Under the pieces are notes generated by a model that ran no database searches, was not told the origin of the DNA, and saw nothing but the letters and a program-made list of their open reading frames with translations. From Bacteroidota bacterium (lineage in GTDB: Bacteria > Bacteroidota > Bacteroidia > Bacteroidales > UBA7960): a DNA stretch of 64,000 nucleotides. Positions 27,791 to 32,675 of this stretch are shown here, one piece after another. The translations under genes were made by a program, and so were the position numbers. Within the stretch, counting starts at the first letter, position 1. Each line of letters begins with the position of its first letter. The stretch spans positions 25,833 through 89,832 of the forward strand of contig JBBISA010000003.1 in NCBI GenBank assembly GCA_037441525.1. The letters are read 5' to 3'.

Positions 27791-28345
27791 TCAAATCAGA
27801 TAAAGACCCAGAGCAACCAGCATTATCCCAATACCTGAAAGTGATTCTACTATTTTGCCCTGGTTGTAAGAAAAGCGATTGGCATTTACAAACCCACTTA
27901 AGGCAAAAATAAGGGTGGAAATCCCCAGTATTTTTGAATTGGAAGCAATAGAGCCATTTAGAAGTTTTACCGCCACGCCTGCAAATAATTGATTAATGCT
28001 GAAAGCTACAGCCATACCCAAAAGCATTACATTACTTTCTATATTATAAATTCTTTGCCGGGCTCTGTTTTTGTAAACCCCTGTAATTATCCTGACACTG
28101 ATTAGCAGAAGCATTACCATCGACACATATAATTCTCTTCCTGCTACATAACCTGAAATAATACCAGCAAAAAAGTACCCCGCAACCAATAAAATCACAC
28201 CTGACAACGCAAATAAAAGAGCCCCTTTCATGTAGGTGCCGGGTTTTGGTTTTTCGCCCCCCCTGGCATTCGCAAGAGCATAGTTGAAATATTGCATTCC
28301 CAGCAATACAGGCAAAACAAAAACCAGAATATCTTTTATTCCCAT
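27791..28345 (-). CDS. MntP-like manganese efflux membrane protein
   Basis: 184 aa, about 6 TM segments, 'GMAVAFSINQLFAG' resembling the MntP A.SiDAl motif; diverged. Confidence 0.55.
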   Translation of the reverse strand: MGIKDILVFVLPVLLGMQYFNYALANARGGEKPKPGTYMKGALLFALSGVILLVAGYFFAGIISGYVAGRELYVSMVMLLLISVRIITGVYKNRARQRIYNIESNVMLLGMAVAFSINQLFAGVAVKLLNGSIASNSKILGISTLIFALSGFVNANRFSYNQGKIVESLSGIGIMLVALGLYLI

Positions 28346-28365
28346 AATTTTGTTTAATAAAGTTA

Positions 28366-28830
28366 TTATTCGATTTTAAGCAAAGAAAGAATTCTCTCGA
28401 GCCCTTCGGCATCAGCATCATCAAATGAAGAGAAATCCTTACTGTCAACATCCAGAACCCCTATAACAGCACCTTTTAAGTTCCGAAGGGGGACAACAAT
28501 TTCGCTGTTGCTACGGCTGTCGCAGGCAATATGTCCGGGAAACTGGTGAACATCGGGCACAACCAGCGTTTTTTGCTGGATGATGGCAGCCCAGCAAACA
28601 CCTGTATTTTTTGCCAGCAACTGACAGGCAACAGGCCCCTGATAAGGACCGGCAATGAGCTCTCCCTTATCAAGCAAATAAAAGCCGCACCAGAAAAAGT
28701 ATTCCATTTTATTGTGCAATACAGCTGCAATGGTTGCCATTCGCGATATATCGTTGCCAGGCTTTGCCAGCAGGCCTTCAATCTGGTCGTACAACCGCTG
28801 GTATCGTCCTGTTTTTCTGTTTTTTTCCAT
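28366..28830 (-). CDS. msrC: GAF-domain protein, free methionine-R-sulfoxide reductase-like
   Basis: WCGFYL, GPYQGPVAC, GVCW, HIACDSRSNSEIVVP, VLDVDS. Confidence 0.85.
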   Translation of the reverse strand: MEKNRKTGRYQRLYDQIEGLLAKPGNDISRMATIAAVLHNKMEYFFWCGFYLLDKGELIAGPYQGPVACQLLAKNTGVCWAAIIQQKTLVVPDVHQFPGHIACDSRSNSEIVVPLRNLKGAVIGVLDVDSKDFSSFDDADAEGLERILSLLKIE

Positions 28831-28951
28831 AGAAGTATATTGGGTTTGTTGGAAGGTGCAAATTTATCAACAACAGTGATTAAAGTTGCAACGAATTTGC
28901 AACAACAATAATCACTATATTGTTGACTATGAAGTATTGTATTTAAAGCAT

Positions 28952-30331
28952 TTACTTAGCCCGTTCGAGCCTTATGGTAAAATGCCGCATTATGGGGGCT
29001 TCTGAAACAATTCTGAATCCACGGGTAATGCTTGCTCTCCGCTCCCAGATGTTGGCAAGACCGATGGCAATATAATCCATGTGGTTGTTGGTATACACAC
29101 GGCGAGGGATGGCCAGTCGCAATAGTTCCAAAACAGGGAAACGGTTTTCCCGTGTTACAGGGTTGCGATCGGCCATAAGGGTACCAATCTCTACACCACG
29201 CACTCCACATTCTATATAAAGCTCCACCGCGAGAGTCTGGGCCTGATACTCCTCTTTGGGTACATTGGAAAGAAATTTTTTGGCATCAACAAATACCGCA
29301 TGACCTCCGGTAGGTTGCTGAATGGGTATGCCAAACCCAGCCAGTTTCTTGCCCAGATATTCCACCTGGCCTATGCGGGCTTCAAGGTATGCAAATTCAG
29401 TTCCCTCCATCAACCCCTGGGCAAGGGCGCCAAGGTCGCGGCCTGCAAGCCCGCCATAGGTAAGGAACCCTTCGTACATGATATTAAAAACACTTGCCTT
29501 ATCGAACAATGATTTATCCCTTATGATAATAAAACCGCCAATATTTACGATAGCATCCTTCTTGGAACTCATGGTGGCCGCATCAACATAAGAAAACATT
29601 TCCTTCACAATTTCACGGATGCTATTGTTTTCGTAGCGTTTTTCGCGGGTTTTAATAAAATAGGCATTTTCGGCAAATCGTGCAGCATCAAATACAGGCA
29701 AAATCCCATACCTGCGGCACAGGGTTGATACCTCGCGGATGTTTTCCATTGATACCGGCTGCCCCCCGCTGGTATTGCAGGTAATGGTAATAATGCACAT
29801 AGGTATCTTTTCTCTTGGATACTTTTTGAAAACATCTTCAAGTTTCTGAAGGTCAATATTGCCTTTAAAGGGATGATATTCATCAGTATGGCAGGCTTCA
29901 TCAATAGTGCAATCAATGGCACGGGCATTCCGAAATTCAATGTGTCCTTTGGTGGTATCGAAATGGGAGTTTCCCGGAACTATATCACCACTCTTTATCA
30001 GGGCCGAAAACAATACATTTTCGGCCGCCCTGCCCTGATGGGTAGGCAGAAACCAGGGCATATCAAATAGTTCGTTAATGGTATTCTTTAATTTATAGTA
30101 ACTCGAAGAGCCGGCATAACTTTCGTCGCCCAGCATTATTTCTGACCATTGGTACTGGCTCATGGCGCCGGTGCCGGAGTCAGTCAGCAAATCGATAAAC
30201 ACCTGCTCACTTTTCAGGTTAAAAAGGTTGAAACCGGCTTGTGCCATCCAGTGTTCCCTCTCTTCGCAACTACTGCGGTAAAGAGGTTCAACAACTTTCA
30301 TTTTCCAGGGTTCGGCATAAGGTAATTCCAT
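28952..30331 (-). CDS. tnaA: Tryptophanase
   Basis: DLLTDSGT, THQGRAAE, MSSKKD (PLP Lys), RLAIPRRVYT; C-terminal RHFT (His as in tryptophanase, not the FF of tyrosine phenol-lyase). Confidence 0.9.
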   Translation of the reverse strand: MELPYAEPWKMKVVEPLYRSSCEEREHWMAQAGFNLFNLKSEQVFIDLLTDSGTGAMSQYQWSEIMLGDESYAGSSSYYKLKNTINELFDMPWFLPTHQGRAAENVLFSALIKSGDIVPGNSHFDTTKGHIEFRNARAIDCTIDEACHTDEYHPFKGNIDLQKLEDVFKKYPREKIPMCIITITCNTSGGQPVSMENIREVSTLCRRYGILPVFDAARFAENAYFIKTREKRYENNSIREIVKEMFSYVDAATMSSKKDAIVNIGGFIIIRDKSLFDKASVFNIMYEGFLTYGGLAGRDLGALAQGLMEGTEFAYLEARIGQVEYLGKKLAGFGIPIQQPTGGHAVFVDAKKFLSNVPKEEYQAQTLAVELYIECGVRGVEIGTLMADRNPVTRENRFPVLELLRLAIPRRVYTNNHMDYIAIGLANIWERRASITRGFRIVSEAPIMRHFTIRLERAK

Positions 30332-30415
30332 AGCAATTCAATTTTATTTTGATAATGAATAAAAACAGAAAAATGACCGGAAAAGAAAAAAACCCGGTCC
30401 GAATGAATTGCTATG
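30329..30415 (-). promoter_or_regulatory. tnaA 5' leader structure: 12-bp helix sequestering the tnaA start codon, enclosing a terminator-like hairpin
   Basis: Plus 30329-30340 CATAGCAATTCA is the exact reverse complement of 30404-30415 TGAATTGCTATG; inner GACCGG/CCGGTC stem (30375-80/30394-99) is followed by ATTTTTCTGTTTTT on -. Confidence 0.7.
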
Positions 30416-30488
30416 CCCGATAAGTGTCGCGCCGCTTAATATTAAGCCAAAGTAAATTGTTGTTATTGGTTAAATATTTGCAAAGCAT
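30411..30488 (-). CDS. Putative Trp-sensing leader peptide of tnaA, MLCKYLTNNNNLLWLNIKRRDTYRA
   Basis: Manual translation: 25 aa, single Trp14 in WLNI, ends 80 nt before tnaA; consensus -7 TACATTTG upstream (plus 30513-30520). Confidence 0.65.
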   Translation of the reverse strand: MLCKYLTNNNNLLWLNIKRRDTYRA

Positions 30489-30671
30489 AGATTATAAGGA
30501 GATTAACCAGTACAAATGTATAAAAATTCCCATTTTGATTATAGCAGCAATTTTGAATTTTTAGTCAGGAATTGAATTTATGGACTTAAAATTTTGCCAA
30601 TAAATCAAAATGAAGCTTGTAAAAAAAACAATTATAGCTAATTTTAGCGCTATAAACAAAAACACACCTGA

Positions 30672-30740
30672 ATGAACATTTACAGCCACACTTGTTGTTG
30701 TTGCAATACAAAGCCTCCGGGCAATGTAAAGGCTGTATAA
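30672..30740 (+). CDS. Cys-rich attenuator leader peptide of cysE-cysK, MNIYSHTCCCCNTKPPGNVKAV
   Basis: Manual translation: ATG 30672, TGT TGT TGT TGC at 30693-30704, TAA 30738-40; directly upstream of a terminator and cysE. Confidence 0.8.
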   Translation: MNIYSHTCCCCNTKPPGNVKAV

Positions 30741-30772
30741 TATTATCTGAAAATTCATAACAGAAAATATCG

Positions 30773-30804
30773 AACCTTTCATTGCTCTTATGAAAGGTTT
30801 TTTT
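30773..30804 (+). terminator. Attenuator terminator upstream of cysE
   Basis: Perfect 10-bp stem AACCTTTCAT (30773-82) / ATGAAAGGTT (30790-99) followed by TTTTT; the alternative partner GCAATGTAAAGG (30721-32) lies in the leader ORF. Confidence 0.85.
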
Positions 30805-30863
30805 ATTTCTGGTCCTTTGGTAGCCAGATAAACTTTAACTGAACAACTAACTTAAAAATAGTC

Positions 30864-31697
30864 ATGGAAAACCTGAGAACATTTGCCGAAAAACTTCTGC
30901 ACGACCATAAATCAGATGTTTGCTATATGCCTTCGCGAAGAGATAGCAGCCAGTTTGTGAACGATATGCTTGAGTTGCTTTTTCCTCTTGATATTCCCTG
31001 CTCAACCGATGAATATCTTTTGCGATTTATGAATTCAGAACACCAACTGCGCAAGATGCTCAACAGCTTGAAAATACTCCTGAAAGAAGAACCAACCAAA
31101 ATTGTGAACCACTTCTTCCCTGCACTCCCGGGCATTTATGAAAGTCTCAGGCATGATGCCGAATCGATTTATAAGTTCGACCCTGCAGCAGCAAGCATTC
31201 AGGAAGTAGTGCATGCTTATCCCGGTTTTTTTGCCATTTCGGTTTATCGGATTTCTCACCAAATGGCAAAACAAAATGTTCCGGTTTTGCCCCGTTTGTT
31301 TTCCGAATATGCCCACAGCCGAACCGGTATCGATATAAACCCGGGAGCCATTATCGGACAAAACTTTTTCATTGACCATGGCACCGGGGTGGTAATTGGA
31401 GAAACATCTGCAATTGGCGATAATGTGAAAATATACCAAGGTGTAACACTTGGAGCAATAACGGTTGAAAAAACACTTGCGGCCACCAAGCGGCACCCAA
31501 CCATTGAAGATAATGTGATTATTTATGCCGGGAGCACGGTACTTGGCGGAAAAACAGTTGTTGGGCACGATTCAATCATCGGGGGCAATGTGTGGCTTAC
31601 TGAAAGCGTACCCCCGTTTTCGGTGGTTTATCATAAAAGTGAAGTAAAAATCAGGTCGGGGAAGAATCATTTCGAACCCATCAATTTCGTAATTTAA
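30864..31697 (+). CDS. cysE: Serine O-acetyltransferase
   Basis: DPAA..EVVHAYPG, TGIDINPGA, FIDHGTGVVIGET, IYQGVTLG, KRHPTIED hexapeptide repeats. Confidence 0.93.
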   Translation: MENLRTFAEKLLHDHKSDVCYMPSRRDSSQFVNDMLELLFPLDIPCSTDEYLLRFMNSEHQLRKMLNSLKILLKEEPTKIVNHFFPALPGIYESLRHDAESIYKFDPAAASIQEVVHAYPGFFAISVYRISHQMAKQNVPVLPRLFSEYAHSRTGIDINPGAIIGQNFFIDHGTGVVIGETSAIGDNVKIYQGVTLGAITVEKTLAATKRHPTIEDNVIIYAGSTVLGGKTVVGHDSIIGGNVWLTESVPPFSVVYHKSEVKIRSGKNHFEPINFVI

Positions 31698-31760
31698 AAA
31701 AACCGGAGAACGAATCAACAATCAATCTGCAAACAATATTCACAATTAAAACTATAACAA

Positions 31761-32675
31761 ATGAAAGCTAATACCATTTTAGAACTGATTGGCAACACGC
31801 CACATCTGCGAATTAATAAACTCTACCCTGCCGATTATGAGGTTTGGATGAAACTTGAAAGAAGCAACCCCGGTGCCAGTATCAAAGACCGCATTGCCCT
31901 TTCGATGATTGAAGATGCTGAACAAAGTGGCGAACTAAAGCCGGGCGGCACCATCATTGAACCAACATCGGGAAATACAGGAATAGGGCTGGCCATTGTG
32001 GCAGCTGTTAAAGGCTACAAGGTAATATTGGTGATGCCCGAAAGCATGTCGCTTGAAAGGCGCAGGATAATGAAGGTTTTGGGAGCAGAATTTGTGCTTA
32101 CTCCCCGCGAAAAGGGAATGAAAGGCGCTATTGCCGAGGCAACTGCCTTGGTTGAATCCACTCCCGGTTCATGGATGCCACGTCAGTTCGACAATCCTGC
32201 CAATCCGAAGGTGCACCGCGAAAAAACTTCCCTTGAAATCATCCAGGATTTCCCCGATGGGATTGATTACCTCATAACAGGTGTTGGAACCGGAGGCCAT
32301 ATTACCGGCGTGGCTGAGGTATTGAAGGAGAAGTTTCCCAACCTGAAGGTTTTTGCTGTTGAACCCGCCCTTTCACCAGTAATCAGTGGTGGTGACCCGG
32401 GCCCCCATCCCATTCAGGGAATAGGAGCAGGATTTATTCCGCAAATACTTAATAAATCACTCCTCGATGGAGTAATTACCGTAAGTAAGGAAGAAGCCTT
32501 TGAATTTGCCCGAAATTCTGCCCTTAAGGAGGGAGTATTTATCGGTATTTCCTCAGGCGCATCGCTTGCCGCGGTGAGCAAAAAGCTTCCCGAAATACCC
32601 AAAGGGTCTCGGATTCTTACCTTCTGCTACGATACCGGAGAGCGATATCTTTCAGTTGAAGGTCTGTTTGAATAA
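31761..32675 (+). CDS. cysK: Cysteine synthase A (O-acetylserine sulfhydrylase)
   Basis: [11 protein letters not shown] (PLP Lys), [34 protein letters not shown]. Confidence 0.96.

Follow-up and report, generated by a model that had tools for sequence, protein, structure and literature searches.

The stretch analysed here, which we call the window, is 64,000 nucleotides (nt) of a Bacteroidales genome (Bacteroidota bacterium, assembly GCA_037441525.1, contig JBBISA010000003.1, positions 25,833 to 89,832). It carries on its minus strand a tryptophanase gene, tnaA, preceded by a short open reading frame lying upstream of it (uORF). This uORF, we find, ends in a peptide motif with an invariant Lys-x-Arg-Asp block, which recurs before tnaA throughout the order. 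The sequence evidence indicates that the uORF is real and is under selection as a regulatory leader of tnaA, and the leader-peptide family to which it belongs is most likely previously undescribed. We think it rather probable that the uORF is a member of a new regulatory leader-peptide family of Bacteroidales and encodes a tryptophan-responsive arrest peptide acting in cis, similar in its working to TnaC, the leader peptide of the tnaCAB operon. The leader would most likely be a sensor of a kind not yet described, in which a peptide turns on the production of indole; the arrest of translation, the identity of the ligand, the direction of control and the output are probable features, deduced from sequence. 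More tentatively, and as a reading to which we would not yet commit ourselves, the family may be a second tryptophan- or aryl-sensing arrest peptide of an origin independent of TnaC, used as a portable module before at least four enzyme families with lineage-specific outputs.

We sought tnaA orthologues in 61 related genomes, found them in most, oriented them and read the 400 nt upstream; a further set of loci came from other families. A leader with the motif precedes tnaA at 38 of the 39 usable loci (L001-L044), which cover the genus, the family and the order. The original prediction for this DNA had proposed to look in relatives for a conserved Trp-containing uORF; the uORF is conserved, its Trp is not. 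Over 137 unique copies, the family consensus is a C-terminal [Y/F]-x-N-[I/L]-K-x-R-D-x-[Y/F] in which the Lys, the Arg and the Asp occur in every copy and the Asn in 130. The first position, which is Trp14 (W14) in the window, is Tyr in 81 copies, Phe in 55 and Trp in the window only. Our search expressions had demanded the K, R and D, and non-matching loci were searched again with K/R/Q, R/K/Q and D/E/N allowed at these positions. The relaxed search returned a single further locus, also K-x-R-D, and no substitution of the three residues, so that their invariance is not an artefact of the search. Around the motif, position -3 is usually Lys, position -1 hydrophobic and position +11 often aromatic. 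Conservation is confined to the C-terminal 10-15 residues of a leader with a median length of 26 codons, whose N-terminal part varies freely and can be as short as 5 residues. The tail that follows the motif has no residue in 35 copies, two in 58, and between 1 and 13 in the remainder; the stop codon is TAA in 72 copies, TAG in 37 and TGA in 28. From this stop to the start of the target gene the spacer has a median of 84 nt (interquartile range 65-100). On the other side, 68 of 90 relatives have a TAnnTTT[GC] promoter box in the 70 nt before the leader ATG, its end at a median of 20.5 nt from the ATG (interquartile range 16-24). On the predicted transcript the uORF comes first, about 20 nt past the -7 box.

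The reading frame and the stop codon are retained in all copies, and the invariant residues are written with mixed synonymous codons. In the 137 copies, Lys is encoded by AAA 71 times and by AAG 66 times, Asp by GAT 79 and GAC 58 times, and Arg by CGN codons 84 and AGR codons 53 times, with all six Arg codons in use. The first 39 loci give a similar picture for Lys (AAA 20, AAG 19), Asp (GAT 20, GAC 19) and Asn (AAC 20, AAT 18), and their mean codon-position entropy is 1.37 at third positions, 0.63 at first and 0.46 at second positions. The mixture of synonymous codons, together with the variation at third positions, argues that selection acts on the peptide and not on the RNA, and the uORF is, by the same signs, translated and under selection in its C-terminal sequence. 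As in the class of metabolite-sensing arrest peptides, a conserved C-terminal peptide is combined here with a variable N-terminus and with selection at the amino-acid level. One of the options offered by the original prediction, a new arrest peptide, fits this conservation of the C-terminal peptide across the order.

The spread of the leader was surveyed with a strict DNA pattern for [YF]xNIKxRDx[YF], run on 401 genomes sampled evenly over the order Bacteroidales. It matched 150 of the 401, belonging to 96 of 237 genera; a control with the reversed pattern gave roughly 30 matches in all, and tnaA itself was found in 252 of the same genomes. Among the 150 listed matches, about 117 lie upstream of tnaA, 11 before other genes and four at a contig end or in an unclear position. 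The other 18 were dropped as chance matches, lying inside long open reading frames or having Ser or stop codons at degenerate positions. For 82 of the approximately 117, a listed tnaA match could be paired with the motif, at a gap of 40-182 nt (median 76), and the others were read directly. In the six-frame translation of the window's own 4.2-megabase genome the motif occurs once, and lyase paralogues, taken as controls, have no leader motif upstream. One such gene of the same genome, outside the window (C2:188115-189458), encodes a second beta-eliminating lyase, 40% identical to TnaA, and has no motif upstream. In named genomes, the leader is present at 59 of 80 tnaA loci. Among these carriers are Carboxylicivirga taeanensis, Marinifilum flexuosum DSM 21950, Ancylomarina salipaludis, Saccharicrinis sp., Parabacteroides sp. 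PFB2-10 and two metagenome-assembled genomes labelled Flavobacteriaceae; Williamwhitmania taraxaci and a Petrimonas sp. carry it as well. Two families of the 401-genome survey, coded f26 and f27, whose TnaA proteins score highest against the model NF053783, gave no motif matches. The TnaA homologues retrieved for genome G091 came from Dysgonomonadaceae, Petrimonas, Tenuifilaceae and the like, with Bacteroides thetaiotaomicron not among them.

Besides tnaA, the leader directly precedes genes of three other kinds. The first encodes fused, IorA-IorB-like indolepyruvate:ferredoxin oxidoreductases (IOR-like) of about 838 amino acids (aa), found in four genomes, which contain IOR-beta and POR domains and score 386-399 bits against TIGR03336, under its equivalog cut-off. 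The second, in six genomes, encodes a 685-aa protein resembling ADP-forming acyl-CoA synthetases (ACS-like), and three of these six genes are followed by tnaA, by an IOR-like gene or by a gene for a beta-eliminating lyase. The apparent operons are leader-ACS-like-tnaA at locus L177 (G543:C122), with tnaA 2.4 kilobases downstream, leader-ACS-like-IOR-like at L173 (G660:C317) and leader-ACS-like-beta-eliminating lyase at L167 (G525:C13). At L158 (G045:C298, minus strand) two leader copies, ending in …FLNIKERDCYHF and …FLNIKERDHYCF before their stop codons, lie at 55-84 and 2291-2320 and flank the 685-aa ACS-like gene; the second copy is at the contig end, the tnaA of this genome begins at the very end of another contig, and the gene order may be leader-ACS-leader-tnaA. 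The third kind is represented by L160 (G041:C266, 974-2425), where the leader MISITAKVLYLNIKNRDAF and its stop stand about 130 nt before a TrpB-like pyridoxal-phosphate enzyme (TrpB2) that scores 572 bits against NF009057, above the cut-off, in a genome without a tnaA orthologue at E <= 1e-150. At a further locus, L166 (G475:C536), a leader ending in …VFINIKNRDRY is followed, after a 563-nt gap, by a thiolase-domain protein (NF004936, 117 bits, below the cut-off).

The target enzymes share only tryptophan and aryl-pyruvate metabolism, and this is our main argument that the signal would be tryptophan or a close relative. That they are otherwise unrelated argues in turn for a cis-acting sensor and not for a partner of one enzyme. 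The leader, judged by its placement, is specific for genes of tryptophan catabolism and, as in the class of arrest peptides that sense metabolites, it stands in cis before genes that share a metabolic theme, here tnaA and the genes of the IOR-like, ACS-like and TrpB2-like kinds. If the portable-module reading is true, the enzyme families served would be tryptophanase, indolepyruvate oxidoreductase, aryl-acyl-CoA synthetase and TrpB2, the outputs would be start-codon masking, intrinsic termination or Rho, and the leader would control the formation of both indole and indole-acetate in Bacteroidales.

In the window, the leader region is arranged as follows, in the order of transcription:

30513..30520, minus strand: -7 promoter box of the Bacteroidota type, TACATTTG, read in the sequence 24 nt before the leader ATG.
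30411..30488, minus strand: leader uORF MLCKYLTNNNNLLWLNIKRRDTYRA, 25 codons plus TAG, with the ATG at 30488 and the TAG at 30413-30411.
30420..30449, minus strand: motif W14-L-N-I-K-R-R-D-T-Y23, the instance of the family consensus in the window.
30404..30415, minus strand: 5' arm of a long-range helix, CATAGCAATTCA (RNA form CAUAGCAAUUCA), overlapping the leader stop UAG at 30413-30411.
30375..30399, minus strand: hairpin GACCGGG-(11 nt)-UCCGGUC, nested within the long-range helix.
30361..30374, minus strand: U-rich, terminator-like tail AUUUUUCUGUUUUU, directly 3' of the hairpin.
30329..30340, minus strand: 3' arm of the long-range helix, TGAATTGCTATG (RNA form UGAAUUGCUAUG), which includes the tnaA ATG at 30331-30329.
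28952..30331, minus strand: tnaA, the putative regulated gene, encoding a tryptophanase of 459 aa (NF053783, PF01212).

The tnaA product scores 809 bits against NF053783 (cut-off 750), which identifies it as a tryptophanase, and matches PF01212 as well. The sequence bears out all the features that the original prediction described in it: the -7 box, the uORF of 25 codons, the U-tailed hairpin, the perfect 12-nt pairing and tnaA. CATAGCAATTCA is the exact reverse complement of TGAATTGCTATG, and the two can form a helix of 12 base pairs (bp) between the leader stop and the tnaA AUG. The duplex alone has -17.1 kcal/mol (z = -4.4), a value equalled by none of 200 dinucleotide shuffles. The minimum-energy fold of the leader contains both this helix and the nested hairpin (z = -3.15; none of 200 shuffles as good). 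The hairpin is formed by GACCGGG at 30399-30393 and UCCGGUC at 30381-30375, with seven pairs, an 11-nt loop and about -9.5 kcal/mol; a simple terminator scan missed it because its loop exceeds 8 nt. No antiterminator pairing was found in the window, where hairpin and U-tail are nested in the long-range helix. The paired bases of the 5' arm span -2 to +9 from the first base of the stop codon, and the footprint of a ribosome at the leader end is predicted to include the arm.

We propose a cis action for the motif, exerted by the nascent chain while it is still in the exit tunnel of the ribosome. In the presence of the inducer, most probably free L-tryptophan, the ribosome would be held at the end of the leader, and the held ribosome would turn on the downstream gene by way of an RNA platform proper to each lineage. 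In the window, a ribosome over 30415-30404 would keep the tnaA AUG free, and the helix would re-form once the ribosome leaves; the nested hairpin may help to close the long-range helix or, with the U-tail, may add termination of transcription. In most other lineages the likely platform would be Rho-dependent termination, as in the tna operon of Escherichia coli, which is controlled by Rho-dependent attenuation (PMC12360218). TnaC and SpeFL offer a precedent for such a scheme: both peptides are encoded by uORFs, sense a small molecule and hold the ribosome in place (PMC8429421, PMC12360218).

The RNA downstream of the leader differs from lineage to lineage. The 12-bp helix is not a feature of the family: the duplex z averages -0.3 in the set of 39 loci and -0.23 in that of 137, and the closest relative (genome G013, TnaA 86% identical) has no such helix. 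The earlier proposal of an anti-start helix melted by the ribosome consequently holds in part, for the helix is real and its 5' arm lies within the footprint at the leader end, but the conservation that had been expected of it in relatives is not there. Pairing of the leader 3' end with the start codon of the target is significant in 12 of the 137 leaders (about 9%), where about 3 are expected, and a complement of NNNAUG is present in 10 loci against 2.5 expected; on this evidence, start masking seems to have arisen repeatedly. Five loci upstream of tnaA (L081, L108, L198, L049 and L149) have start-masking duplexes of their own, of -11 to -13 kcal/mol, whose 5' arms fall on the motif codons, on the tail or over the leader stop. 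Tail codons UUU/UUC-CAU (Phe-His) are complementary to AUGAAA/AUGGAA at the tnaA start.

In the genus of the window, a hairpin follows the stop at all 21 loci, in sequences unrelated to one another, and the first 60 nt of the spacer have a mean z of -2.69. Twenty of these hairpins have -3.7 kcal/mol or stronger and are found within 19 nt of the stop; that of L012 is weaker relative to its 308-nt spacer. Outside the genus the hairpin is patchy (mean z -0.71). The spacer of L012 (G009:C401) is itself unusual, with 308 nt between leader and tnaA against the usual 90 or so and a fold of -84 kcal/mol, and possibly holds an inserted repeat element. That of L043 (G054:C31) consists mostly of short tandem repeats, GGTTGCC-like units and then six copies of CCTTCTCAA.

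Overall, the spacers contain 19% C and 10% G, and their first 20 nt 25% C, 40% U and 13% G; the mean C/G skew is 0.31, against a background of 0.12 in the 5' regions of the own genome. The genome of the window encodes Rho (657 bits, in a 678-aa frame) with a long N-terminal region, as is typical of the phylum (PMC12360218). We suggest Rho-dependent attenuation in most other lineages because no structure is conserved there and because the composition of the RNA after the stop fits it. The original prediction had favoured attenuation by other means than Rho; a part for Rho is nevertheless possible, rho being present in the genome and the spacers pyrimidine-rich and G-poor directly after the stop.

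Several observations weigh against a tryptophan-responsive arrest peptide that acts through the RNA below it. There is no common RNA platform: 29 of 103 spacers have essentially no structure, and no more than 17 of 103 relatives have a terminator-like hairpin followed by a U-run. In the genus of the window, the hairpin begins at a median of about 12 nt past the stop, where a ribosome at the stop could barely reach it, and the window's own spacer has an ordinary skew of 0.13 against the background mean of 0.12. The TrpB2-like target makes tryptophan from indole, a poor fit to tryptophan as inducer, and about a quarter to half of the tnaA genes of the order are without such a leader. As to expression, the window sequence was found in DNA runs only, from a subsurface metagenome, and the metatranscriptome contigs found for the Marinifilum locus are short and, while they span tnaA and some of the spacer, leave the leader uncovered; the runs listed for genome G302 contained few of the sequence words sampled or were of unspecified type. 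Finally, the distance of 0-13 residues from motif to stop would place the motif at differing depths in the tunnel if the ribosome stalled at the stop codon. The variable tail therefore argues for a stall site that is fixed relative to the motif and is not simply the stop codon.

We weighed five other explanations against this reading. The one with the best chance, which we still regard as unlikely, is a constitutive leader that senses nothing, whose translation opens the RNA or shields it from Rho and whose conserved peptide is a ligand-independent pause sequence; tnaA expression would then be coupled to general translation capacity. Translation of the leader alone would indeed briefly melt the 12-bp helix, and the RNA after the stop is pyrimidine-rich and G-poor. 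Nevertheless, a ten-residue motif with invariant K, R and D over about 100 genera is an excess of constraint for mere coupling, and its recurrence before four unrelated enzyme families that have only tryptophan and aryl metabolism in common points to a specific signal.

Descent from TnaC is another explanation, and here also we see little probability: the leader would be a highly diverged but true member of that family, with the same tryptophan pocket and Tyr or Phe in place of Trp12. TnaC, which has 24 aa in E. coli and extra codons after the Pro in a variant from Proteus vulgaris, and the present leader are both short uORFs that lie directly before the tryptophanase gene and share its transcript (for the present leader a predicted co-transcription), and the position and size of the latter, 14-40 codons just before tnaA, are those of TnaC. 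In both, conservation is confined to the C-terminal half, tryptophan induction is expected, and the RNA after the stop is pyrimidine-rich and G-poor in an organism with Rho. Both also have an aromatic-x-N-I about 10-12 residues from the C-terminus, corresponding to W12-F13-N14-I15 of TnaC; with the commonest tail, of two residues, the aromatic residue stands 11 residues from the C-terminus (12 in TnaC). In the cryo-electron microscopy structure of TnaC, L-Trp is held between A752:U2609 and W12, I15 and D16, and N14 bonds A2058 (PMC8429421). Stalling requires W12, D16, I19 and P24, and in E. coli it is abolished by any substitution of W12 and also by D16E (PMC8429421). Three of these four essential residues are not retained in the new family. 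In place of W12, 136 of 137 copies have Tyr or Phe; the position of D16, four residues past the aromatic, is Lys in all 137; and no terminal Pro corresponding to P24 is conserved, position +10 being Pro in 14 of 76 leaders while the leader of the window ends in R-A. The likeness of the window's W-x-N-I to TnaC and the missing equivalents of D16 and P24 had been pointed out in the original prediction, and both are as stated there. TnaC has nothing that corresponds to the K-x-R-D block, the length of the tail past the motif varies, the stop codons are mixed where TnaC has a UGA specific for release factor 2, and the leader also heads IOR-like, ACS-like and TrpB2-like genes. The spacer, of about 84 nt, compares with about 220 nt between tnaC and tnaA in E. 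coli. Searched against the TnaC hidden Markov models of Pfam and NCBIfam (PF08053 and TIGR02616), six leaders gave no match even at E = 10. A likeness over four residues could also have come about by chance or by convergence. We conclude from these comparisons that the leader is TnaC-like in design and, by its sequence, stands outside the TnaC family.

We hold it to be very unlikely that the uORF encodes a free micro-protein that works in trans, modulating enzymes or a regulator. The peptide is under purifying selection, as such a protein would be, and some leader peptides, such as peTrpL, do act in trans. On the other hand, only the C-terminal 10-15 residues are conserved, with an N-terminus that can shrink to 5 residues; the frame is always found 5' of its target, on the target's strand, not far from it and straight after the promoter; and a binding partner shared by the unrelated enzymes that it accompanies is improbable.

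Two last explanations have next to no probability. In the second option of the original prediction, which spoke of a single-Trp leader, ribosomes short of Trp-tRNA would stall at W14 and never reach the helix; the window leader does have one UGG, 12 codons before the stop, but the other 136 of the 137 leaders have UAY or UUY at this position and no other conserved Trp codon, so that the Trp codon is not the sensor, and a catabolic gene would be induced under the wrong condition. That the conserved block is instead an RNA or DNA element, such as a protein site or a riboswitch-like structure, in an incidental frame would suit its place in a 5' leader, where such elements are common, and is hardly credible for a region without an Rfam match in which variation falls mostly on third codon positions, all six codons serve for the invariant Arg, with changes between CGN and AGR, and frame and stop are always kept.

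A cis-acting arrest peptide, the reading that we prefer, can be set beside other leader systems. SpeFL of E. coli and Salmonella is an ornithine-sensing arrest peptide upstream of speF that has been proposed to form a sensor with the ribosome (PMC12360218). Like the present leader, it is a uORF peptide proposed to sense a small molecule and thereby to release a catabolic or decarboxylase operon from premature termination (PMC12360218); its sequence, ligand, phylum and targets are all unrelated. Attenuators of the trpL type also consist of a short leader frame and RNA hairpins before genes of amino-acid metabolism, but what they sense is charged tRNA, by means of runs of regulatory codons, and what they control is biosynthesis, whereas the present leader has no codon run (a single UGG, in the window only), a conserved peptide and catabolic targets. 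Peptides of the RAPP and SecM/MifM types are likewise lineage-restricted, unannotated uORFs with a conserved C-terminal arrest motif, although they sense the force of protein export and not a metabolite, with other motifs and other targets (PMC10987492).

The leader has no gene call in the records of the named carriers. Six leaders compared with Pfam-A and NCBIfam at E up to 10 gave no match, short queries having little power in such searches, and none of ten leader sequences was present, as an exact match, among 15 billion proteins. An Rfam scan of positions 28000-32000 of the window, at E up to 10, returned no family at the leader. Full-text literature searches, which covered tryptophanase and tnaC leaders of Bacteroidetes as well as arrest peptides and the motif strings, gave no account of the element, and the papers that could be searched do not describe how indole production is controlled in Bacteroidota.

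To our knowledge, very few nascent peptides make the ribosome sense a small metabolite, the main examples being TnaC, SpeFL and the fungal arginine attenuator peptide. If our reading is true, a second, unrelated tryptophanase leader would permit a direct comparison of how one ligand is read by different peptides, and would provide a new sensor part for organisms whose translation initiation is not led by a Shine-Dalgarno sequence. Indole and indole-acetate from Bacteroidota matter in gut, wastewater and sediment communities, and an unannotated leader that occurs in about 100 genera, among them the cultured Williamwhitmania, Marinifilum, Carboxylicivirga and Ancylomarina as well as a Parabacteroides, offers a hypothesis that can be tested directly.

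A leader of another kind lies in the same intergenic region, divergent from that of tnaA. On the plus strand, at 30672-30804 of the window, a 22-codon frame, MNIYSHTCCCCNTKPPGNVKAV, contains four Cys codons in tandem. A terminator-like hairpin of 11 bp (30772-30800) and a T-run come after it, 59 nt ahead of cysE (30864), beyond which lies cysK (31761). Sub-threshold Rfam matches (PyrR, trpB motif) fall over this region. From its sequence the frame looks like a cysteine attenuator, which would make it a leader of the codon-run kind, unlike that of tnaA.

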